From assembly GCA_942490685.1 (NCBI GenBank), contig CALNXW010000016.1, positions 2,341,703-2,405,702 on the forward strand: a stretch of 64,000 bases of DNA. Reading direction: 5' to 3'. Below the pieces are notes generated by a model. That model made no database searches and had not been told where the DNA came from. It was given only the letters and a program-made list of their open reading frames with translations. Positions 2,679 through 17,513 of this stretch are shown here, in pieces; positions within the stretch are counted from its first letter, which is position 1, and each line of letters starts with the position of its first letter. A program made the translations under genes and the position numbers. This stretch comes from an uncultured bacterium (lineage in GTDB: Bacteria; Bacteroidota; Ignavibacteria; Kapaibacteriales; UBA2268).

Positions 2679-3806
2679 GTGCTTCTTCTGCGGTTTGTTT
2701 TTTTATTTGTCTATTCTATTATGTATAAAACTCTAATCTATATTTTTATATTAGTTGCAACTTTCACAGCTACTCAAGCCAAAGACTCTTTATGCACCAT
2801 AGACAAACTATATTTCGGTCAAGTGCAATTTGATAATGACTCTTTGGAAAACAAGAGTTATGAGTTTTATATGCATCTGCCGGTAGGAATGGAAAGTACT
2901 TTCTATTTTAGGGAGTTAGCTGATAAAAAATACAGAAAGCTATTCCTCAATGTTGCTGACAACATAAGTACAAGTTCTTATTATAAGGATTCCATCACTA
3001 CTAGATTTCACTTCGGAGATGCAGAGATTACTCTGGATACAAATTATTCTCTTGAAATGCTATCGGCAGATATGAAAATAAGAAGAAAATTCTCCAAGGG
3101 AATAGGTTCTTATGATAGAGATGACAGCATCCGAATTATAATGATGTCTCAAGATCCTGAGGAGATTGCAGAAACTATCAAAGTGCTGGAAACAAATTAT
3201 ATAATCCCCAGACCACTTGACAGAATGAATGATTACTGGGCTACAGTAAGCGTACTTCCCGGAAGAAATGAGTTTAGTTTCCAAGGAAATTATTTTTCTT
3301 ATATGGGCAAGTTCGATTCAGAACCCTACCCCTTTTTAACATTTACTTTCCCTAATATATCAGTTGTGTATGACAAAAACGGCTTCAGAAGATATTCCTA
3401 TCAAGCAGCTGCGATTCCATTATTGGGTGGCATAGCTGCTCTAAGTCCTCTCATTGATCATGAATCTTCAGTGCTATTTTGGGCACCCGGTTTCATATTC
3501 GGCTTCTTGTCGGCAATATCAAATCCCGGTGTAGACTTCCATATTTCAGGAATAGACAATTATTTTTCGTTTTACTGCAAGTTAAACTGGGACATACTAA
3601 TAGTTGAAGTACCGGATATTAAAGATTATAAACAACCTGACAACTTCTTTGTCGAGCCAAAAATTGGCTTTAGATATTTGAATGTAAGAGGGTTTGGTTT
3701 TGAGGCATTTGCAGGTTATAGAATATGGAATTTCCCATTGACTTTAAGTCATGAACATGCATTTGCAGGAGTTGCAATAATAATTCCAATAGCAGACTTA
3801 GATTAG
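2679..3806 (+). CDS. Hypothetical secreted protein
   Basis: Long ORF with a hydrophobic N-terminus; the real start is probably at MYKTLIYIFILVATFTATQA. No recognisable motif. Confidence 0.35.
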   Translation: MLLLRFVFLFVYSIMYKTLIYIFILVATFTATQAKDSLCTIDKLYFGQVQFDNDSLENKSYEFYMHLPVGMESTFYFRELADKKYRKLFLNVADNISTSSYYKDSITTRFHFGDAEITLDTNYSLEMLSADMKIRRKFSKGIGSYDRDDSIRIIMMSQDPEEIAETIKVLETNYIIPRPLDRMNDYWATVSVLPGRNEFSFQGNYFSYMGKFDSEPYPFLTFTFPNISVVYDKNGFRRYSYQAAAIPLLGGIAALSPLIDHESSVLFWAPGFIFGFLSAISNPGVDFHISGIDNYFSFYCKLNWDILIVEVPDIKDYKQPDNFFVEPKIGFRYLNVRGFGFEAFAGYRIWNFPLTLSHEHAFAGVAIIIPIADLD

Positions 3807-4532: not shown

Positions 4533-4700
4533 AAAAGCAGTACTGAATTTCTCTATACAGCAGCGACATTTTATTTACTAAATGTCGCTTTTTTTGTAAC
4601 TCAATACAAATATTAACGTCTAATTTATCTTAAACAGTAAGTAATATTTTATTACTTATAAGCTTATTTATTTTGCAATATATATATATCTTTTATAACT

Positions 4701-5798
4701 TTGGCCTCCTTTAAACCAACAATCATTCTTTTTAAATTCGGCAAGGGATCTCTTATGAAACTCAAACATTTATTTACATCATTATTTGTGCTATCACTTC
4801 TATTCTCTCTGAATAGCTGTCAGGACACTCCAAACAGCCCAACTCCGAGCAGAGAAGATATTTATTGGAGCAAAGTTGAAAACAAATTTCCTAATCATTC
4901 TTGGGTTAAATCTCTATACAAGAACAATATCGATGGCAAACATCATTTAAGTTTGCTTAGAAAAGATACAAATATTGTTGATATTTATGTATCTGATGAC
5001 GGATTTGACTGGGAATTACGAGAAACTATAAAACCTGCGAAATTGAATTTTGAATTCGGATTTGCAGAAGAGTTTTCCGGCAAGTTTGACGATATCTTAA
5101 TAGGTAAGAATGATGTGATCTTTTACAAAATTAGTGGTCGACTTTTCAGATCTCTCTCAAACTTTGAAAATTTCGAAGAAATCAAATCCAATATAAATTA
5201 TAAAGACTCCCACTTAGATTATGAATTCTTTGATGATATAATATTTGATAAGGATGGAACAATTTATTCAGGAATGACTTTGAAATCAACAGATAACGGG
5301 AATACTTGGCAGGAATTAGCGAGCGGGCTTAAATATGTACACAAAGCTAACACCCTATTCAAAGACCAAAGTATTGTCGTTTTATACGATGACGGGTATT
5401 ATCTAAGCCCAGATAAGGGAATTAATTGGACTAAGATTAAGTACCCAAAAGTAAATGAAAATGCAGACTTTATAACTTATTATAAACCTGAAGATGTGTT
5501 AAATTCCAACCCTTCACCGATAGAGATTAAAAAACCTGAAAAAGGGAATATGGTATTATATTATATGACAGAAGACAGTACTCTTATTTCTAATATCTGT
5601 GGCAATAATACAGTCGGCAAAAAGGAATGGGAATACTCGACATCATTTAATTTGTATACATCATCTGATTTTGGTGAAAATTGGGATTTTCAGTTCTGTG
5701 TTCGTGATGCTTGGAAAATTAATTATATAGAAGAATCAGGATACTTCTATATAACCACTCCTGTTGGTATTCTACGAAATAAGAAACCTGTGAAATAG
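4701..5798 (+). CDS. BNR/Asp-box lipoprotein, paralog 1 of a 5-gene tandem family
   Basis: Probable start at M19 (MKLKHLFTSLFVLSLLFSLNSC, lipobox). Asp-box motifs at STDNGNTWQEL, SPDKGINWTKI and SSDFGENWDF. C-terminal GILRNKKPVK. Confidence 0.6.
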   Translation: MASFKPTIILFKFGKGSLMKLKHLFTSLFVLSLLFSLNSCQDTPNSPTPSREDIYWSKVENKFPNHSWVKSLYKNNIDGKHHLSLLRKDTNIVDIYVSDDGFDWELRETIKPAKLNFEFGFAEEFSGKFDDILIGKNDVIFYKISGRLFRSLSNFENFEEIKSNINYKDSHLDYEFFDDIIFDKDGTIYSGMTLKSTDNGNTWQELASGLKYVHKANTLFKDQSIVVLYDDGYYLSPDKGINWTKIKYPKVNENADFITYYKPEDVLNSNPSPIEIKKPEKGNMVLYYMTEDSTLISNICGNNTVGKKEWEYSTSFNLYTSSDFGENWDFQFCVRDAWKINYIEESGYFYITTPVGILRNKKPVK

Positions 5799-5809
5799 GG
5801 AATAAAAAC

Positions 5810-6868
5810 ATGAAAAAACTAAGTTTAATATTGATTTTAGCTGCTGTGATTTTGGGAGTTTATGGGTGTAGTGAAGAATCTGAATCAAGAGATATACCAG
5901 CTAATTCACATAAATTAGAAATGTTAGGTGATAAAGAGCTTACGCTCTATTCCATTTATTACAATGATTATGATAACAACTATTATTTACTTGGATATGA
6001 CAGTGCAAATTATAAATATAATGTATACAAATCCGAAAATGATGGTAAAGATTTTGACTTATGTTTAACATTAGATGCTGACATTTACGAAAATCGACTA
6101 GTTCGACCTGATATTGTGATTGGTAAAGATGGATATGTTTTCCTTTCTACCTCAGGTATTTTGTTCAGATACCCTCCTGATTTATCCGAAAAAGTAGATT
6201 TAATAGAAACCGGAAAAAGTGCCGAAGGTTTAGAATCGCCTTACTTTAATCTACGCGGAGGTCATGGCTTAATTGCGGTAGATTCTGATGGAATCTTGTA
6301 TAAAGATTTAAAATATAAATCCACTGATAATGGACTAACATGGATTTTGGCAGCTGATGACAAAGACGATAAAGAAGAAAATGAAGATGATGGTTGGGCA
6401 GCTTCTTCTCCTCAATTACTTATAAAAAACAACATTTTACTATATTATTCCAGATCAATCCAACCTTCTTTTAAAATCAGTACTGACCAGGGTTATTCAT
6501 GGAGTGAAGAATTCCAGGTTAGTTCATCAATCGATTCTTTACACTGTGCTTTTTATGATATTCACAATATTACAAATGCTAACCCTAAACCTTTCATAAT
6601 TAAAAAACATGCTAAGGGCGATACAAAAGTAATCGGGATTGATAAATATGGCAATATCTTATCTGAAAAATTAGGGAGTAATATAGATTTTGACTATAAG
6701 TTTTACGATTCTAAATATACTTATATTTACTCTTCTAGTAATATGGGTGAAACTTGGAATTATCAATTTTATCTATTTGAGTATCAAAGATTTTTCACTC
6801 CATCTGGATACATATATTTTGAGACATGGGAACAAGGTATCAAACGCAATAAAACTCCACTTAAATAA
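5810..6868 (+). CDS. BNR/Asp-box lipoprotein, paralog 2
   Basis: Signal peptide plus lipobox MKKLSLILILAAVILGVYGCS. Asp-boxes at STDNGLTW, STDQGYSW and SSNMGETW. C-terminal GIKRNKTPLK. Confidence 0.65.
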   Translation: MKKLSLILILAAVILGVYGCSEESESRDIPANSHKLEMLGDKELTLYSIYYNDYDNNYYLLGYDSANYKYNVYKSENDGKDFDLCLTLDADIYENRLVRPDIVIGKDGYVFLSTSGILFRYPPDLSEKVDLIETGKSAEGLESPYFNLRGGHGLIAVDSDGILYKDLKYKSTDNGLTWILAADDKDDKEENEDDGWAASSPQLLIKNNILLYYSRSIQPSFKISTDQGYSWSEEFQVSSSIDSLHCAFYDIHNITNANPKPFIIKKHAKGDTKVIGIDKYGNILSEKLGSNIDFDYKFYDSKYTYIYSSSNMGETWNYQFYLFEYQRFFTPSGYIYFETWEQGIKRNKTPLK

Positions 6869-6880
6869 AGGAAAATTTGA

Positions 6881-7927
6881 ATGAAAAAACTAAGTTTAAT
6901 ATTGATTTTAGCTGCTGTGATTTTGGGAGTTTATGGGTGTAGTGACGACATCGATGGAATATCTCCTGTTAAAAGCGCAAATTCTGAAAAAGTAGAACAT
7001 GTGCTTAAACACTGTGCTTCGATAAGTATTATTGATTATAATAAAATGGAAGATACTTATTATATGATTGCCTTTGAATATAATTCTATGAAACTAATTT
7101 TATATACTTCTAAAACTGGTGAAGATTGGACACTTTTAAAAGATATGAGCAAAGATTACAAATATTTTGATCTTTTTAGAGGTGGAGAGGACATACAAAG
7201 CTTGAAGATGTCACAAAAAGGAAATCTATTTATCCAATACAAAAATACATTCTTCAGTGTTATGAATGATTTTGAAATATTAAACAATTTAAATTACTTA
7301 GCAAAGTATGAATACAAAGGCAATATTATTGTAGATTTTTCTGATATCAATATAGATGATGATGGCGTTATTTATTCAGGTTGCTATCTAAAATCAACTG
7401 ATGAAGGTTTTAATTGGACATTCATTGAAACTCCTTTCGAGAATGGTGATTATTTCTATAAAACTTATATCTACGGTAATATGATCATTGCTGATTTTAA
7501 AGATTGTATATGGAAAAGTGAAGATAAAGGCGAAACTTGGATTAAAGTGCTAGATAAAAAAACATCAGAGTCACCAACTGAGTTATATTATTACAAGCTA
7601 GAAAACATCCCTACAAATAAACAAGTCGAGTATAAAATTACCAGACCTGAAGAAGGCATATTCAATATTATAAAAATGCTCGACAATGGGCTTATAATTG
7701 CAAATTGGGAAGGATACAAAGAAAATGACTACTTCCCTGGTTATGCTAGTAATTGCAATATACACACTTCTACAGATAATGGCGAAACATGGAATTACGA
7801 ATTGAGCTTTATGGATACTTACACAAGTAGTTATAGTGGATCACCCGCAATTTATTATACAAAATCAGGTTACATTTATGCCAAAACAGGTGATGGTATA
7901 GTGCGCAATATAAAACCTATAAAATAG
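6881..7927 (+). CDS. BNR/Asp-box lipoprotein, paralog 3
   Basis: Its 5' 60 nt (signal peptide) are identical to paralog 2. Asp-boxes at STDEGFNW, SEDKGETW and STDNGETW. Confidence 0.65.
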   Translation: MKKLSLILILAAVILGVYGCSDDIDGISPVKSANSEKVEHVLKHCASISIIDYNKMEDTYYMIAFEYNSMKLILYTSKTGEDWTLLKDMSKDYKYFDLFRGGEDIQSLKMSQKGNLFIQYKNTFFSVMNDFEILNNLNYLAKYEYKGNIIVDFSDINIDDDGVIYSGCYLKSTDEGFNWTFIETPFENGDYFYKTYIYGNMIIADFKDCIWKSEDKGETWIKVLDKKTSESPTELYYYKLENIPTNKQVEYKITRPEEGIFNIIKMLDNGLIIANWEGYKENDYFPGYASNCNIHTSTDNGETWNYELSFMDTYTSSYSGSPAIYYTKSGYIYAKTGDGIVRNIKPIK

Positions 7928-7938
7928 AGAGAATCAAA

Positions 7939-8973
7939 ATGAAAAAACTCATTTTATTATTTATTATTTCAGTAGTTATGTTAGGTATTTCTGCATGCGA
8001 AGATGACTCTGTCCAACCGGATACATTTTCCAGTGCAGATAAATTAGAAATTGCATTTGAAGGCTATGACTTCATTTTAGATATATTCCAGAATAATTAC
8101 GATGACAATTACTACGCAATTTTGGTAAACAGAGATACTGTGCAATACAACATCTTTAAATCTACTGATCTTGGTGCAACATGGCAATTAGAGGATGTAT
8201 TTACAAAGTCAATGATTTCTCCTACATTGGATAAATTTTATGATACACCAACCATTATATACGGAAAAGATGATTATACTTTCTTTTATTTGCACAACAA
8301 AATATTCAGGAAAGCAAAAAATCAATCAAAATTTGATCTTTTAAACATTAAGATAGATACAGAAGATAGGACTTATTATGATCAATTTGGTTATCAGTTT
8401 AACTTTGTTGATAAAGATGGGATTCTATTTGCTTCAGATTTTGTTAAGTCTTCAGATAATGGGGAAACTTGGACAGATATCAACAAACCATATAACACAT
8501 CAGTATATTCAACAGCAATTGACAATTATATAGTTGTAAAAGCCGATAATTCTGAACCTGAATATCAATATTATGTCAGTGCTGATAAGGGAGAATCATG
8601 GACAGAATCAACTTTTGATTACTCTAGAAATGATAATAACTCTGAATACCTTAGGTTTTACAATGATGAATACATCGCATATAATTTAGAACCAAAGCAG
8701 ATTAAAAAGCCTAGCAAGGAAGAATTATATATATACGATATAACTAAGAACAATACTGTAATAGCTTACGAAACAGGATATTTTGATCATGACAAAGACA
8801 ATTTCGGTGATTTCAGCATCTATACGTCAAAAGATGACGGAGAAAACTGGAAATTCCATTTCTCTTTTGACAGTCGTACCGGAAGTTTTTACACTAAATC
8901 AGGCTACATCTATTTTAACTCAACAAGTTACAATTATCATGGTATCAAACGCAACAAAACTCCACTTAAATAA
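7939..8973 (+). CDS. BNR/Asp-box lipoprotein, paralog 4
   Basis: Lipobox GISAC. Asp-boxes at STDLGATW, SSDNGETW, SADKGESW and SKDDGENW. Highly similar to paralog 5. Confidence 0.65.
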   Translation: MKKLILLFIISVVMLGISACEDDSVQPDTFSSADKLEIAFEGYDFILDIFQNNYDDNYYAILVNRDTVQYNIFKSTDLGATWQLEDVFTKSMISPTLDKFYDTPTIIYGKDDYTFFYLHNKIFRKAKNQSKFDLLNIKIDTEDRTYYDQFGYQFNFVDKDGILFASDFVKSSDNGETWTDINKPYNTSVYSTAIDNYIVVKADNSEPEYQYYVSADKGESWTESTFDYSRNDNNSEYLRFYNDEYIAYNLEPKQIKKPSKEELYIYDITKNNTVIAYETGYFDHDKDNFGDFSIYTSKDDGENWKFHFSFDSRTGSFYTKSGYIYFNSTSYNYHGIKRNKTPLK

Positions 8974-8985
8974 AGGAAAATTTGA

Positions 8986-10020
8986 ATGAAAAAACTAAGT
9001 TTAATATTGATTTTAGCTGCTGTTATTTTGGGAGTTTATGGGTGCGACGAAGAGCCAAGTAGACCAAGCATATATTCCAGTGCAGATAAGATAGAAACTG
9101 CATTTGCAGGGTATGACTACATTGCAGATATTTTTCAAAATAACTACGATGATAATTATTATGCTATTTTGCTAAATCATGGCACAAAGCAATACGACAT
9201 TTTTAAATCCACAGATCTTGGTGCTACCTGGAAATTAGAAGATATATTCACGATGGATATGTTTGATTCAACGATGAATGCGTTTTATGATGCTCCCACC
9301 ATTATTTACGGGAAGGATGACTATGTTAATTTTTTTTCAGCACCTAATATTTATAGAAAACACAAAAGCGACTCAAAATTTAAAACTTTAAAAACTAAAA
9401 TAGTATCGGAAGACAGCACTTATTATTCGCAAATTGGATCTCAGTATAAATATATTGATAAAGACGGTGTCCTTTACGCTTCAGCTTACGCTAAGTCCTC
9501 AGACAATGGAGAGACCTGGATTAAGATTAAAAGACCATTTGATCATACATCTTTTTCAACAGCAATTGATAATTATATTATTATAGATGCAGAAATATCA
9601 ATCTCTGAATATAAATATTTTACAAGTTCTGATAAAGGTAAGTCATGGACAGGATCTACTTTTGATTATTCTCCGAATGAGAAGAACTCCAAATATTATA
9701 AATTTTACAATAACGAATATATTGCTTATAATAAAGAACCACGTCTGATTAAAAAACTGGAAATGGGCGACTTATATATTTACGATATAAACAGTAACAA
9801 CACTGTTATAGCGTCCAGATCAGGTTATTTTGAACACGAAGAAGACAATCATGGTTTATTCAGCATCTATACGTCCAAAGATGACGGAGAAAACTGGAAA
9901 TTCCATTTCTCTTTTGACAGTCGTACCGGAAGTTTTTACACAAAATCAGGTTACATTTATTTCAACTCTACAATGCGAGACTATCGTGGTATCAAACGCA
10001 ACAAAACTCCAATTAAATAA
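8986..10020 (+). CDS. BNR/Asp-box lipoprotein, paralog 5
   Basis: Same conserved signal peptide as paralogs 2 and 3. Its C-terminal 40 aa are nearly identical to paralog 4. Confidence 0.65.
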   Translation: MKKLSLILILAAVILGVYGCDEEPSRPSIYSSADKIETAFAGYDYIADIFQNNYDDNYYAILLNHGTKQYDIFKSTDLGATWKLEDIFTMDMFDSTMNAFYDAPTIIYGKDDYVNFFSAPNIYRKHKSDSKFKTLKTKIVSEDSTYYSQIGSQYKYIDKDGVLYASAYAKSSDNGETWIKIKRPFDHTSFSTAIDNYIIIDAEISISEYKYFTSSDKGKSWTGSTFDYSPNEKNSKYYKFYNNEYIAYNKEPRLIKKLEMGDLYIYDINSNNTVIASRSGYFEHEEDNHGLFSIYTSKDDGENWKFHFSFDSRTGSFYTKSGYIYFNSTMRDYRGIKRNKTPIK

Positions 10021-10100
10021 AATGTTTAATATCAAACCAAACAGCAGCAGAATCACTTAAATCCTGCTGCTGTTTTATTATAAAATAAATTATCATATTC

Positions 10101-12157: not shown

Positions 12158-13441
12158 TCAAAAGCTTATTTGCTTTGTTTTCATAGATTTAAGCATTACA
12201 TATATTGACAATATAAGTAAGAATATTCCTACTGCAAACACGCCCGTGTAATCAAGATATTCTAATAGCCAAATACCAAATAGTGGACCAAATATTGCTC
12301 TAAAGCCAACCATTGATAGATGTATTGACTGATACTCTGCTGCATCTTCATTTTTGCAAAAATATGCTGAACCAATATTCCATAAAAGAGGCATTGTGCC
12401 CGCAAAAAGACCATTGAAAGTAAAAGATACTATCAATAGCCAGTAGAAAGTATATGCACCCCATTGAACGTTATATGGCATATATTCAGTTAGAGCCATA
12501 AAAAGTAAGTGCAATGCAAGAGTTGCAAAAGTGAATGCTCCAAATTTTCTGGGATCAATTTTATCAATGAGTTTCCCAAAAAACGGAAGGGAGACAATCG
12601 CTATTAGATTATAAGAATTTTTATAAAAAGCCAGGCTTTTATAACTTAGATCAAGCTCTTTTGCTAAAAACAGAGATATAACAGCCACGGTCATCATAAA
12701 AGACAATCCATAGAGCATAAAACCAAGCTCAAAATCTCTGTAAGGTTTATTTTTTTTGATTATGTTCAGAAGATTAGGAAAAGAAGCTTTTACAGAATCT
12801 AAAACAGACCTTTGTTTATCATGCCCCGCCATATAGTCTTTTTTAACAGCAGAAGAGAGAAGGAATACAGAAACTATACCAACAACCGCAATAAAAGGAT
12901 AGACATAAGTAAAGGCAAAATTATCAATTTCCAGAAGCTCCCCAAAAGTGAAGGTCGCAATAAGCATTATCACTTTATTTGCACTTGTTGCATAGCTGTA
13001 TAAAGTACCAAAATGCTCAGTTTTATAGTTATTCTTCAGTATACTGTTTATTATTGGATTTATTACCGGAAGAGCCAGATAGTAGCAGAGGAACATGCTA
13101 AGAAGTGCAGCATGAAAGAATATCATTTGATCTGGAGGAAGAAGCTCATTTGGGAAAAAAGCAGCACCTAGTAAAGGCAATCTGGTCAAAAGAGCTACTA
13201 TCCTTAGTATGTTTTTCTTTTTATACTTCTTGATGATCTCATGAATAAAAACGGAAAACACAAATACTATCATGCTAAACTGAAACAGCACTGCCAGTAA
13301 GAACTCAGAACCGTTCAAACTTTTAATAAATACGAATTCGTTTAAAACAACTACACCCAGCACTATGCCTTCTATTACAGAATAGATGAAATGAAGGATA
13401 AATATCTTTCTCTCATCTTTGCCCAGCTCTCTTAGTTTCAA
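12158..13441 (-). CDS. MFS-type transporter
   Basis: Multi-TM protein with the MFS pattern. The ORF track extends it to 13561, but that extension overlaps the tRNA at 13535-13607. The real start must lie downstream, possibly the TTG at ~13441 (LKLRELG...). Start uncertain. Confidence 0.55.
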   Translation of the reverse strand: MKLRELGKDERKIFILHFIYSVIEGIVLGVVVLNEFVFIKSLNGSEFLLAVLFQFSMIVFVFSVFIHEIIKKYKKKNILRIVALLTRLPLLGAAFFPNELLPPDQMIFFHAALLSMFLCYYLALPVINPIINSILKNNYKTEHFGTLYSYATSANKVIMLIATFTFGELLEIDNFAFTYVYPFIAVVGIVSVFLLSSAVKKDYMAGHDKQRSVLDSVKASFPNLLNIIKKNKPYRDFELGFMLYGLSFMMTVAVISLFLAKELDLSYKSLAFYKNSYNLIAIVSLPFFGKLIDKIDPRKFGAFTFATLALHLLFMALTEYMPYNVQWGAYTFYWLLIVSFTFNGLFAGTMPLLWNIGSAYFCKNEDAAEYQSIHLSMVGFRAIFGPLFGIWLLEYLDYTGVFAVGIFLLILSIYVMLKSMKTKQISF

Positions 13442-13534
13442 AATATTCTTCCCGTTTAATAGTAAATAGTATTTAAAATTGAACACATACAACGAAAAAA
13501 AGCAACTTCTTATTTTGAAGTTGCCTTTATTTTG

Positions 13535-13607
<73 letters not shown>

Positions 13608-13727
13608 GTGATTATGTGATACAAATATAGGTAAAATTTAGACAAAATAAAAATCTTTCTCGATAATTTCTTTTTTTTACTTTTTACTATATTACCGGAT
13701 ATTGAATATTATAATCTGAGAAATACA

Positions 13728-16700
13728 ATGGAATTTACCAGAGAGCAAAAATTAGCATTTACAGCTGACAGACACTTAGTAATAAGTGCAAACGCAGGAT
13801 CGGGTAAAACCAGAATTCTGGTGGAGAGATTTTTGCAGATTTTAGAGCATGAATCCACTCTCAATGATAACCCTGAAAATATTATTGCAATCACTTTTAC
13901 TAAAAAGGCTGCATCGGAAATGTTTGCCAGAATTATTAGCTCTTTAGGTAAAATGATTAAAGAAGAAAAAGATTCTGAGAAGCGATATAAATTCAGGCGA
14001 ATAAGATCTCGCATTTTCCAGGCTAAAGTATCTACAATACACAGCTTTTGCTGCAGTTTGCTCAGAGACTATGCTGTTGAAGCTGACATTTCTCCAAATT
14101 TTCAGGAGCTTAGCGAAACAGACAAATTTCTACTCTATAGAGACGCAAAACTAAATGCTATCGAAGATATAATAACAGAACAAAATAATGATTTGAGTTT
14201 AGAGTTTAAGGAACTTCTAAGCAGAAATAAGATGTATCTCATCGAATCAATTATCGATACTATCTTAGCTAACAGATATGAATATATGCAGATGAAAGAA
14301 CTCTTCGATGAAGAGAGTCACAACCCTTTCGAAGCTAAAGAAAACAATCAAATTATTAAATCTGTTTTTGATAGATATAGAAAAGGGATTCTTCTCATTC
14401 TGAATGCGCTGAAAAATATTAGCATAGAAGATCTTACTGCAAAAGAGGGCAAGGACTTGCCTATAATCCAATCTTCTGTCTTGCCAAAGGCTGAAACAGA
14501 AATAAACAATTACGATGACAACCCTATAGAAGCTCTTAGAAACTGTCTTGAATCTATGGCATTGGACAAAAAAATTGGGAGATCTCTCTGGTACAAACTA
14601 GTCACTAAGAAAACGAGCTACTCTGCCAAAGAAGAAGAACAAATAGAAGCTACTATAAAATTGATAGAAAAAGACATTAAAGCTTTCAATAATACCTCAG
14701 CAAATGAAAACTTCCCTCATTTACAAAAGGCTGTATACCATTTTATTGACCATCTTTTATATATCGCTGATAAAGAAAAGGAAGAAAGAGGACTTTTAGA
14801 TTTTGATGATTTAATATTGCGCGCAAAGTCCTTACTTAGTGATCCAAATATCAGAGATATGGTTATGGCAAAGGTGGATCATATAATGGTAGATGAGTTC
14901 CAGGATACAAACCAATTGCAATATGACATCCTACAGGATTTAATTCCCGAACTAAAGCAATATGCTCCCGAAACAAATACTAAGGCGAACTTATTTATTG
15001 TCGGCGATGGGAAGCAGAGTATCTATGCATTCAGAAACGCTGATGTCAGAGTATTTAATGCAGCATCAGCAAGAATAGCAGAACTTAACAGTAAAAAGAT
15101 GGCAGCTGGCAAGCTTATTACTAATATGGTCAACTTCCAAGGGGAGCACCTTGACTATATCGATAATGAAAACAACGGAATGCTCTCTCTAAACGCATCA
15201 TTCAGACTCTCCCCTGTTGTAGCTGCATTTGTAAATAAAATTTGCGGCAGTATCATGGATACATCTGTCTCAGAGTTTGAAGTAGCTTATGAAGACCTGG
15301 TTTTTGCTAAAAACAGTTCTGCCATTAAAAAAGAGATATCAGACAGATTCCCACACTACCTCTTTGATTCACCAAATCAAATTTTTGAAGCCGATGATTC
15401 GAGACACGGATCTGTTGCATTTGTAATTCATAAGGAAGAGAAAGAAGACGAAATTGAAGAAGAAACTGAATCTGCTGATAAACTTGAGGCAACAAAGCTA
15501 ATCAGGTATATCAAATCTAAAATTAAAGGTAAAGAGCCATATCAAGTATTTGAAAATGACACCTTTAGAAATGCTGATTATAAAGATGTAGGTATACTAA
15601 TTCGCTCCAGAAGTAAATTAAGCGAGCTAATGAATGCATGTATAGAAGAAAAAGTACCATTTGTACTTCATGCAGGCTCAGGGCTATATCAATTGCAGGA
15701 AGTGCAGGACATGATTGCACTACTAAAATTTTTGTATAATCCTAATGATGACATTGCATGCATAGGTGTTTTGCGTTCCCCATTTTTTGCCCTGTCTGAC
15801 AAAGAATTATATAATATCTATCAAGCAGAAAAACATGACACTTTCTGGAATAAGGCCATACGTTATTCAACAAATAAAGAAGCTACCAAAACTTTTACAG
15901 AAGCATTCCAATACCTTCGGAAAATACTTTCTGTCAGCGGCAGACTCTCTCCTACTGAATTAATAAGCAAACTCATCTATGATAGAGCGTATTTCGAAAA
16001 AATATCCGAAGATAAAGCTATAGATCAGATTAAAGCTTCAATAGAAAAATTTGTTTCTCATATCCGAGGATTTGAAGAAAAAGGCTTTGCAGATATTTAT
16101 GATCTTATGCAAGAACTGAATCTTCTGCTTGAAATCAGCAGTGACGGAGAAGCTTCTGTATCTTCTGAAAATGCTATAAACATAATGACATTCCATGCTT
16201 CTAAAGGACTTGAATTCCCTATTGTTGCTCTTTATGGCACAAACAACAAAACCGGAAGACCAAGCAGCGTTTACTTTACTAAAAACTTTGGTGTAGCTTT
16301 CAAAGATAAAAGAGTCAATGAAGCTACAGGGCTGCTGGAACCAGTAGATAATATTTACACTCTGATCAGCAGAGAACTGAAAAATCAAGCTGAAGATGCT
16401 GAAGATAAAAGACTCTTATACGTGGCTTTGACCAGAGCTAAAGATCATCTGATCATATCTGCAAATATTTCTCATACCAGCAAAAAAGTAGTTACCCTTC
16501 AATCTTTTGCTAAAAATATTTTTGATGTTCTTCTTAGTGAAAATACACAGGATTATTCAGGTAATTCTCTCTATAAAACATTCTACGAAAGTGAGCTTTC
16601 TCAAGCGAATATAACAAAACAAGAGCTTTCATTTTTGGAAAATAATGAGCTCAATAATATGTTGATTGCATATCATATTCCATTTATTTACGAAGTTGAG

Positions 16701-17513
16701 GCAACAGAAAGTAGTTTTGATATAGAATCTGACATAAATGAGGGCGAACAAGAGGAGTCTGCATTTATTCCTGCCAGATACCATAATGAAGTTTTCTCTG
16801 CTTCTAAGATAATGACTTATAAAACTGACGCATCAGATTATGAGATGAAATATCTTGTTGGACTCAGTCCAAAAGAGAAATATTTCAATCCTAATAATGA
16901 TAAAGAAAATGACGAGCTAAGCGGCAATGTCTTAGGTATCTATATTCATGAAGCTATGGCAAAACTAAACAGCTGGTGGCAAGAAAAACAAGTAATAAGA
17001 GAAGAATTGGAAAAGATTATAAGTGTACTTCTCAAAAGACAAAAAAGCTTTAGCGAAGAAAATTTAAAACAAGTAGCAGATCTTTGCGTAAACATTGTGT
17101 CTACAGATTATATTCAGGAGCACAGCGCTCAACTTGAAGAAGCAAAGTTTGAATTAGAGTTAAATATTCCAATTGAAATTCATTACTTAACAGGAAGCAT
17201 AGACTGCCTTATAAAGGACGAAAACAATAATCTTATAATATGGGACTGGAAGACTAACAAAATTGCTGAATATAGCAATATAGAGAGTCTTGCTTCTCAT
17301 TATAAACATCAAATGTCAATTTATGCTTATTTAGTTTATTTGATCAATAAAAATCAGGAAACATATACAGCAAAACTACTCTTTACAGATTATGTTTCCA
17401 GAAGTGAAAACAACAACTGGATATACTCATTTGAATGGACTAAAGAAGAAATCATCGAAGTTGGCAAAGATATGTTTAACACCATTGTGGAGCTAAGCAA
17501 TAAATATTACTAA
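13728..17513 (+). CDS. UvrD/PcrA-family ATP-dependent helicase with C-terminal PD-(D/E)XK (RecB-like) nuclease domain (AddA-like)
   Basis: Walker A at ANAGSGKTRIL. Helicase motifs at VDEFQDTN and TFHASKGLEFPIV...VALTRAK. C-terminal IDCLIKDE...IWDWKTNK matches a RecB-family nuclease motif. No addB-like partner is adjacent. Confidence 0.8.
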   Translation: MEFTREQKLAFTADRHLVISANAGSGKTRILVERFLQILEHESTLNDNPENIIAITFTKKAASEMFARIISSLGKMIKEEKDSEKRYKFRRIRSRIFQAKVSTIHSFCCSLLRDYAVEADISPNFQELSETDKFLLYRDAKLNAIEDIITEQNNDLSLEFKELLSRNKMYLIESIIDTILANRYEYMQMKELFDEESHNPFEAKENNQIIKSVFDRYRKGILLILNALKNISIEDLTAKEGKDLPIIQSSVLPKAETEINNYDDNPIEALRNCLESMALDKKIGRSLWYKLVTKKTSYSAKEEEQIEATIKLIEKDIKAFNNTSANENFPHLQKAVYHFIDHLLYIADKEKEERGLLDFDDLILRAKSLLSDPNIRDMVMAKVDHIMVDEFQDTNQLQYDILQDLIPELKQYAPETNTKANLFIVGDGKQSIYAFRNADVRVFNAASARIAELNSKKMAAGKLITNMVNFQGEHLDYIDNENNGMLSLNASFRLSPVVAAFVNKICGSIMDTSVSEFEVAYEDLVFAKNSSAIKKEISDRFPHYLFDSPNQIFEADDSRHGSVAFVIHKEEKEDEIEEETESADKLEATKLIRYIKSKIKGKEPYQVFENDTFRNADYKDVGILIRSRSKLSELMNACIEEKVPFVLHAGSGLYQLQEVQDMIALLKFLYNPNDDIACIGVLRSPFFALSDKELYNIYQAEKHDTFWNKAIRYSTNKEATKTFTEAFQYLRKILSVSGRLSPTELISKLIYDRAYFEKISEDKAIDQIKASIEKFVSHIRGFEEKGFADIYDLMQELNLLLEISSDGEASVSSENAINIMTFHASKGLEFPIVALYGTNNKTGRPSSVYFTKNFGVAFKDKRVNEATGLLEPVDNIYTLISRELKNQAEDAEDKRLLYVALTRAKDHLIISANISHTSKKVVTLQSFAKNIFDVLLSENTQDYSGNSLYKTFYESELSQANITKQELSFLENNELNNMLIAYHIPFIYEVEATESSFDIESDINEGEQEESAFIPARYHNEVFSASKIMTYKTDASDYEMKYLVGLSPKEKYFNPNNDKENDELSGNVLGIYIHEAMAKLNSWWQEKQVIREELEKIISVLLKRQKSFSEENLKQVADLCVNIVSTDYIQEHSAQLEEAKFELELNIPIEIHYLTGSIDCLIKDENNNLIIWDWKTNKIAEYSNIESLASHYKHQMSIYAYLVYLINKNQETYTAKLLFTDYVSRSENNNWIYSFEWTKEEIIEVGKDMFNTIVELSNKYY

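Follow-up and report, generated by a model that had tools for sequence, protein, structure and literature searches.

Near-identical joints in a tandem array of Asp-box lipoprotein genes point to concerted evolution and cassette exchange in an uncultured Kapabacteria-type lineage

In a 64,000-nucleotide stretch of DNA from an uncultured bacterium of the Kapaibacteriales (contig CALNXW010000016.1 of assembly GCA_942490685.1, positions 2,341,703 to 2,405,702; hereafter the window), five consecutive, co-directional genes on the + strand, G1–G5 (4755-10020), encode predicted lipoproteins with Asp-box motifs. The bodies of these genes appear to be old and highly divergent, whereas the joints between them seem to be kept near-identical, each joint comprising the last ~33 nt of one gene, a spacer of 11-12 nt and the 60-65 nt at the start of the following gene that encode its signal peptide. 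We consider it probable that recombination at these conserved joints is the mechanism that has shaped the array. The joints would serve as homology patches for ordinary homologous recombination, presumably of the RecA type, which could act in three ways: short-patch gene conversion would copy one joint onto another within a genome; unequal crossover between joints would remove or add exactly one gene unit and could permute gene order; and DNA from related lineages would be recombined in, making the array genes far younger than the surrounding chromosome. The outcome would be interchangeable gene units behind a constant export signal, with strains differing in the lipoproteins that they make. 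Comparison of the locus with its relatives captures the process at three levels, namely patch conversion, unit-precise crossover and exchange between lineages: we observe identical tracts, a mapped recombinant junction, a permuted gene order and a contrast in synonymous divergence (dS). We class the array as a tandem family of surface-lipoprotein-like genes that undergoes concerted evolution and exchange of cassettes.

Near-identical joints between divergent genes

The first-pass annotation of this DNA described five Asp-box lipoprotein paralogues with divergent bodies, and our alignments bear this out. Pairwise identity among G1–G5 is 26-35% for protein and 45-51% for DNA, with 35-43% at third codon positions, the exception being the pair G4 and G5 (64% protein, 73% DNA); each protein carries 2-4 Asp-boxes of the strict form S-x-D-x-G-x-x-W, whose S, D, G and W do not vary across the alignments. 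The first 65 nt of G2 and of G3, counted from the ATG, are identical at all 65 positions. Three of the paralogues had been said to begin identically; this holds for G2 and G3, and the start of G5 differs from theirs at 2 of 60 nt. Near-identical as well, despite the unlike bodies and much as had been described over ~105 bp, are the G2/G3 and G4/G5 joints, which lie 2.1 kb apart and agree at 102/104 nt, the spacer AGGAAAATTTGA included.

Several counts speak to how unusual these tracts are. A 34-nt part of the signal-peptide block is found at three sites only in the 64-kb window, the starts of G2, G3 and G5, with 0 expected. Third positions of the block are identical at 20/20, against the 35-43% of the gene bodies, and from the codon usage of the window the probability of meeting the same codons for the same 20 residues is ~1e-10. 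Junction identity, at 98-100%, is far above the third-position identity elsewhere in the same gene pairs, so that the proposed excess over the synonymous-site level stands. The 3' block that the fourth and fifth paralogues had been noted to share is also present and includes a perfect 65-nt run, a length reached by 0/20000 column permutations (maximum 51, mean 19.6). Because this block is kept at 85-96% in the orthologues L3_c and L4_x, we read it as partly a conserved segment of the clade and not solely the product of recent conversion in this genome. The spacer AGGAAAATTTGA of the two type-B joints, on the other hand, is specific to the window, other genomes having spacers of the AGGACAAACATC or AGGACAAAC type; such a window-specific shared spacer would be the expected signature of patch conversion within the genome.

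The junction between G3 and G4 (7892-7938) is of a different kind. Here the end of the G3 gene, together with the spacer after it (…AAAACCTATAAAATAG AGAGAATCAAA), looks like the G1-type joint found in two related loci, L002 and L005, and not like a type-B joint, with 30/36 positions matching L5_a plus an AGAGAA spacer. Since the joint looks G1-type and the signal peptide of G4 is an older one of its own, the array in the window may be a join of two shorter arrays.

A recombinant junction, permuted gene order and exchange between lineages

Related arrays, whose maps were drawn from the identities of mature parts, carry 3 to 5 genes with differing sets and orders. Beside G1-G2-G3-G4-G5 in the window, L002 (Candidatus Kapaibacterium sp., OZ223198.1) has G1-G2-C-remnant; its close relative L005 has G1-G2-G2b, then an unrelated gene; L006 and L004, two contigs of GCA_041596115.1, have G1-C-G2 ... 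G4-like, then G5-like; L003 (= L001; Kapabacteria bacterium, OY761611.1) has G1-G3-like-G5; and L007, a Logan contig, has G1, then G5-like.

The flanks of L002 and L005 are 96-99% identical, with histidine kinases at dS 0.02, and L002 has one whole gene unit (gene c) more than L005. The two align across genes a and b and 60 nt into the third gene, where the alignment ends. We mapped the crossover by a three-way comparison, setting the b/c joint of L005 against the b/c and c/remnant joints of L002. Up to position -29 the L005 joint is matched by the L002 b/c joint at 23/24 informative sites, the 24th matching neither parent, and it matches the c/remnant joint at -5, -4, -1, +33 and +60 to +64; within the block it is mixed, 4/6 informative sites from +33 to +48 being unlike the c/remnant parent. 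The L005 joint is a chimaera of the two L002 joints and, because the parent match switches between -29 and -5, the crossover lies in the shared 24-nt stretch AACTCCACTTAAATAAAGGACAA. We interpret the difference between L002 and L005 as the gain or loss of exactly one unit through recombination between joints. Gene order is permuted as well, being G1-G2-C in L002 and G1-C-G2 in L006; the two loci are 91.5% identical in C and 93.6% in G2.

The last element of the L002 array is a remnant gene (L002 13159-13266) made of the signal block and 15 codons (MKKLSLILILATFILGIYGCDGTTEPSELPVISDK*) that resemble L5_c, followed by the 3' end of a gene of 296 residues that is intact in L005. We read this remnant as the scar of a deletion that began just after a block.

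The breakpoints vary in position (ATG, 3' block, 3' edge of the signal-peptide block, interior of G1), which fits homologous rather than site-specific recombination. With its high-identity tracts, its recombinant junction and its 3 to 5 genes among relatives, the array has the marks of a tandem family under concerted evolution. The gene conversion or unequal crossover invoked in the first-pass annotation is therefore supported, by the identical tracts, the mapped junction and the differences in copy number; the comparison of copy numbers and junctions among relatives, which it had recommended, reveals arrays that are not identical and, in L002 and L005, a recombinant junction.

A further line of evidence comes from the contrast in dS. 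When the window is set against L005, dS ranges from 1.9 to saturated in six flank genes, but is 0.48 for G1 and 0.33 for G2. In a sliding comparison of the two, identity rises from 60-75% to 76-97% at ~4890, just past the G1 signal peptide and linker, and drops again at 6945, where the G3 block ends. G5 and L3_c stand at dS 0.58, and G2 and L6_c (L006) at 0.17, both with saturated flanks; between the L004/L006 metagenome-assembled genome (MAG) and L005, array genes are at 0.10-0.14 and flanks at 0.47-0.93. Low dS is not intrinsic to the array genes, since other array gene pairs reach dS 1-3, and the same pairs rule out codon bias as its cause. On the simplest reading, array segments would have been imported repeatedly between lineages by homologous recombination.

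Of the earlier proposal that the array generates surface-protein variation, the variation in gene content among genomes stands, while exposure at the surface and a selective benefit of varying would have to be assumed. That surface-protein variation is the purpose of the array seems to us possible, if somewhat doubtful.

Conservation of the signal-peptide block and alternative explanations

Several points weigh against recombination at the joints as the account of this locus. Homogenisation is not uniform, as the two blocks of L003 differ at 7/60 positions, even though one of them is 58/60 identical to that of the window. The block is 58-60/60 identical between lineages (L3_b and L7_b versus the window, for example) in which the flanks, and even some neighbouring array bodies, are saturated. 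The 3' block of G4 and G5, as described above, is partly conserved across the clade. The ratio of non-synonymous to synonymous divergence (dN/dS) is 0.14-0.37 in array genes versus 0.02-0.09 in flanking genes, which suggests that the array genes are functional and under purifying selection, less constrained than the flanks; being below 1 overall, it does not indicate pervasive diversifying selection. Finally, dS was obtained by a simple Nei-Gojobori count in an AT-rich genome, and all comparisons are between assemblies, mostly MAGs.

The conservation of the block itself calls for explanation. Over 60 nt it is 52-60/60 identical in 11 genes tabulated from five loci, whose mature parts are 22-31% identical, and three further copies in L006 and L007, outside this tabulation, look alike. 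The block of L2_c (L002) equals that of G2 and G3 over 60 nt and, by eye, through the first 65 nt. When the window is compared with L002 and L005, equally conserved 60-nt windows outside the array are found only at the tRNA-Met gene (13534-13607) and in directly adjoining DNA; in comparison with L003, the block is tied for the most conserved 60-nt window. Non-preferred codons are kept in it (CTA 0.13, AGT 0.16, GTG 0.14, GGG 0.08), and selection on the peptide is not the cause of its conservation, because its variants comprise 7 synonymous and 9 non-synonymous changes. One variant, A18G, is carried, in five loci and with any body type, by all genes that come next after a G1-type gene, and is absent from the other tabulated copies. 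Since it follows array position and not body type, it suggests that the upstream part of the joint stays put while bodies are swapped. Conversion within a genome cannot account for the identity of the block between lineages, because the flanks of these lineages are saturated and the L003 blocks differ mutually; two possibilities are then a pool shared through frequent exchange, or selection on the sequence itself.

The tRNA-Met gene, on the - strand, overlaps the annotated start region of an open reading frame (ORF) for an MFS protein (12158-13561). The listed start of this ORF, like that of a 482-residue ORF of L002 beginning MEQLVARRAHNPKVAGSSPVPAT, reads through the tRNA, and both ORFs are probably too long.

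Selection on the sequence would make the block and junction a functional nucleic-acid element, such as a translation-initiation or coupling element, the target of an RNA or protein regulator, or a dedicated recombination signal, with recombination a by-product. This explanation overlaps with recombination at the joints; taken by itself, we regard it as unlikely. It would account for a block that is conserved whatever body follows and ranks with the tRNA-Met region (tied for first place against L003), for the retained codons and the mix of variants, and for the way in which A18G tracks position; the block also holds an imperfect palindrome, CTAAGTTTAATATTGATTTTAG. The palindrome is weak, however (79% over 14 nt), the fold of the junction RNA is no more stable than that of shuffles (z = 0.31), and Rfam returned 0 matches at E <= 1 for it. 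Moreover, G1 and G4 function without the block, the blocks of L3_c and L4_a have drifted by 5-8 positions, and frequent exchange together with conversion could alone keep the pool of blocks similar. A structured RNA element finds no support in these results; a non-structural RNA role of the block is possible.

A related reading, which we hold to be doubtful but worth stating, is that the joint, chiefly its 60-nt block, is a cis-acting adapter under selection at the DNA or RNA level, and the array a modular cassette-exchange system with a gene pool common to several Kapabacteria lineages. Were this true, the system would be integron-like without an integrase, working through homologous recombination or an as yet unrecognised recombinase, and the constant export signal would serve a second role, as the place where incoming gene units dock.

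Site-specific recombination by a dedicated recombinase at a fixed 5' site, in the style of the Mycoplasma vsp/vpma/vsa loci or of integrons, is very unlikely. It would explain a 5' region conserved across paralogues and species, the hallmark of vpma/vsp loci (PMC2268961), and could draw on the palindrome and on an IS110-family transposase that lies 6 kb upstream in L005. Yet that element is present in one strain only, and no recombinase or integrase is encoded within ~5-10 kb around the array in the window, L002 or L003 (in the window, 4.7 kb upstream and ~11 kb downstream); the array's neighbours are ACR3/SBF, a BNR protein with a sorting domain of the type IX secretion system (T9SS), an unknown protein, DJ-1, a histidine kinase, MFS and a UvrD-type helicase. 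All genes run in one direction, each with its own start codon and spacer, which leaves neither an inversion switch nor silent cassettes. As attC-like inverted repeats were not found either and breakpoints fall at differing positions, we reject integron-type or site-specific shuffling.

Plain tandem duplication and vertical descent, with signal peptides alike through amino-acid and codon-bias constraint, is most improbable: the signal peptides and a C-terminal GIKRNKTP motif are conserved as protein, and an AT-rich genome narrows the choice of codons, but the codon match and identical third positions reported above, the identity of an untranslated spacer and non-synonymous variants as common as synonymous ones speak against it, and the recombinant junction and permuted order already contradict it. 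An assembly artefact with collapsed or mis-joined repeats is barely conceivable, for although a contig break interrupts the array in one short-read MAG (L004/L006), the same architecture recurs in six independent assemblies, four of them on 1-3.8 Mb contigs, the repeats measure merely 65-104 nt, and the related arrays are similar, not identical, and hence not copies of one sequence.

Layout, proteins, relatives and comparison with known systems

The features of the array are collected in Table 1. In the ORF list G1 begins at TTG 4701; ATG 4755 is more likely, as it is where the orthologues begin and a promoter-like element overlaps 4701. The spacers between G1–G5 measure 11, 12, 11 and 12 nt. 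Matches to the pattern of that element number 8 in the window, against 3.3 expected; we take the pattern to be the consensus of Bacteroides promoters, and the element would presumably act as one. No terminator of note was found between G1 and G5. With terminators at both ends only, a single promoter-like site upstream and such short spacers, the simplest reading is that G1–G5 would form one operon-like unit with a single transcript.

Table 1. Coordinates of the array genes, shared tracts and candidate boundary elements in the window
Feature	Position	Strand	Remarks
Terminator-like hairpin	4562-4589	+	Ends the upstream DJ-1/PfpI gene; putative left boundary of the transcription unit; 10-pair stem, then T run
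Candidate promoter, Bacteroidetes type	4672-4703	+	TTTG-N20-TAACTTTG; sole such match adjoining the array
G1	4755-5798	+	First gene, own distinct signal peptide; orthologues first in every related array
G2	5810-6868	+	Asp-box lipoprotein; mature part 88-89% identical to L2_b/L5_b
Signal-peptide block, copy 1	5810-5874	+	65 nt, identical to 6881-6945
Homogenised junction G2 to G3	6836-6939	+	Last 33 nt of G2, 12-nt spacer AGGAAAATTTGA, first 59 nt of the G3 block
G3	6881-7927	+	Most divergent paralogue
G4	7939-8973	+	Diverged signal peptide, 41/60 to the block; mature part 65% identical to G5
Perfect 65-nt run, G4 copy	8830-8894	+	Equals G5 9877-9941
Homogenised junction G4 to G5	8941-9044	+	3' end of G4, spacer, first 59 nt of the G5 block
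G5	8986-10020	+	Last gene; mature part 77% identical to L3_c; protein used for the structure model
Perfect 65-nt run, G5 copy	9877-9941	+	Equals G4 8830-8894
Hairpin terminator, 16 pairs	10039-10075	.	Between the array and the convergent CHASE-PAS histidine-kinase gene; putative right boundary

The hairpin that terminates the array, AACAGCAGCAGAATCACTTAAATCCTGCTGCTGTTTT, is identical, loop included, in L002 (~13355-13395), where the surrounding DNA is ~75% identical. Over the ends of genes lie three out-of-frame ORFs of 64-76 residues (6690-6884, 8783-8989 and 9830-10060, + strand) that share the same C-terminal peptide; they are probably by-products of the repeated 3' block read in another frame, not genes.

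The N-termini of G1–G5 are of the lipoprotein type, with MKK, 12-14 hydrophobic residues and a Cys (residue 20 or 22), and the proteins may be lipidated; the lipobox endings are VYGC, ISAC and LNSC, in which Y or N at -2 is atypical. In Bacteroidetes, the lipoprotein export signal (LES) consists of a polar or positive residue and then two acidic residues at +2 to +5 after the Cys, as in SDDDD and SDDFE (PMC5080379). The residues after the Cys in G2 (SEESE), G3 (SDDID), G4 (EDDSV) and G5 (DEEPS), polar and then acidic, fit this pattern and resemble those of LES surface lipoproteins; surface exposure of G2–G5 would be plausible. In contrast, G1 (QDTPN), L3_b and some relatives (GKGDS) fit poorly, and an LES export pathway in Kapabacteria is putative.

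In Pfam, the BNR gathering cut-off of 27 (PF02012) is passed by G4 alone (31.7), with G5 at 26.1 and the others at 14-17. The G4 match is to the 12-residue BNR motif; no full-length or domain family model of Pfam or NCBIfam reached its cut-off for G1–G5, BNR_2 scores being 11-18 against a cut-off of 31.4 and NCBIfam matches falling far short of theirs. The catalytic (F/Y)RIP motif of GH33 sialidases was not found in any of the five proteins, and a sialidase or glycosidase function is unsupported, as similarity is at the level of the Asp-boxes and lacks the RIP motif. A predicted structure had been suggested as a check for a small beta-propeller, and the G5 model indeed has a generic beta-propeller fold, for which Foldseek gives probability 1.0 to sialidases, sortilin and Ycf48, with TM-scores of 0.2-0.45 to these propellers.

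Relatives of the family are few. A word-indexed search of 5.8 billion clusters returned 8 proteins, and an exhaustive profile search of 1.84 billion representatives returned 7 full-length clusters, the remaining matches being at Asp-boxes only; G1-type proteins form 4 clusters. Scans of JGI metagenome contigs, by exact pattern for the block and by protein pattern, gave 0 matches, and exact look-ups of the G3 and G5 products returned no record of either. The family is restricted to about six genomes among 15 billion proteins, with all members from syntenic loci, and we regard it as a lineage-restricted family of Asp-box propeller lipoproteins, found in a few Kapabacteria-type genomes and, for annotation, lying outside all curated models.

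Upstream of the array, a BNR/Ycf48-like protein of 392 residues (1466-2644, +) carries a T9SS C-terminal sorting domain (Por_Secre_tail), from which the organism appears Bacteroidota-like; with the array proteins it has one double Asp-box stretch in common (hhalign probability 81%). At this position L002 has a spacer of ~750 nt and L005 an IS110 transposase and an EcoRII-type restriction-modification pair, so this spot is variable too. The gene at 2679-3806 (+), conserved upstream of DJ-1 in all loci, starts at a CTIDKLYFGQVQF motif and looks outer-membrane-like by eye; it has no Pfam match. A second, divergent copy lies downstream of the array in L004 (1395-2456), adjoining a 293-residue gene that is also in L005. 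L003 has an extra gene for a secreted-looking protein of 189 residues between DJ-1 and the array (9182-9751), and in it CorA and MscS genes (13438-15313) replace the histidine kinase downstream, synteny breaking exactly at the right end of the array. The window, L002 and L005 all have, about 3.7 kb beyond the downstream end of the array, a gene for a UvrD-type helicase with a PD-(D/E)XK nuclease domain, AddA-like and a general recombination and repair enzyme (13728-17513, + in the window; domains read from the L005 orthologue).

The locus offers an example of short conserved coding blocks that may act as docking sites for whole-gene swaps, and it raises the question of why a 60-nt coding block should be as conserved as a tRNA gene across saturated lineages. 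Known systems share some of its properties. With BNR/Asp-box propellers (GH33 sialidases, GH74 xyloglucanases, sortilin Vps10, Ycf48) the array proteins have the repeated S-x-D-x-G-x-T-W in common, and profile matches span the double Asp-box; the similarity, however, extends over ~60 residues, and full-length relatives are confined to the six loci studied. Like integron cassette arrays, the array consists of co-directional, promoter-less units that vary among strains and have a conserved sequence at each joint, but here the joint consists of coding sequence and the breakpoints vary; in a comparison with intI and attC, the flanking genes showed no integrase domain and the junction no significant inverted repeat or fold.

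In the Vpma locus of Mycoplasma agalactiae and the Vsp locus of M. bovis, conservation within and between species is confined to the 5' untranslated region (UTR) and the region coding for the signal peptide, the remainder being unrelated (PMC2268961). The array resembles them as a cluster of lipoprotein genes of strain-variable content, with a conserved signal-peptide 5' region and unlike mature parts. Those loci undergo Xer1-type site-specific inversions around a single promoter, with an adjoining recombinase gene and genes in both orientations. By contrast, the array is co-directional and tightly spaced, its genes have their own starts, and it has variable breakpoints and neither an adjacent tyrosine recombinase nor inversions behind one promoter or silent copies; what is conserved in it is not a 5' UTR but a unit running from stop through spacer to start, and its products are predicted beta-propellers rather than repeat-rich extended lipoproteins.

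The Erp and Elp (OspE/F-like leader peptide) proteins of Borrelia burgdorferi are multi-copy lipoprotein families with a common leader and divergent mature parts (PMC12242104). The array shares with them the attachment of one leader to divergent mature parts; the Borrelia genes, however, lie on separate cp32 prophage plasmids of a host-associated pathogen and encode unrelated folds, whereas the array is chromosomal and operon-like. Reportedly, Akins et al. in 1999 held recombination responsible for the Erp and Elp families. Lipoprotein families with a constant leader and a variable body are textbook devices of host-associated pathogens such as Mycoplasma and Borrelia. The same logic would appear here in an environmental lineage that is uncultivated and related to Bacteroidota, and in another architecture, in which the genes form a co-directional, operon-like series and the stop-spacer-start joints are what is conserved.

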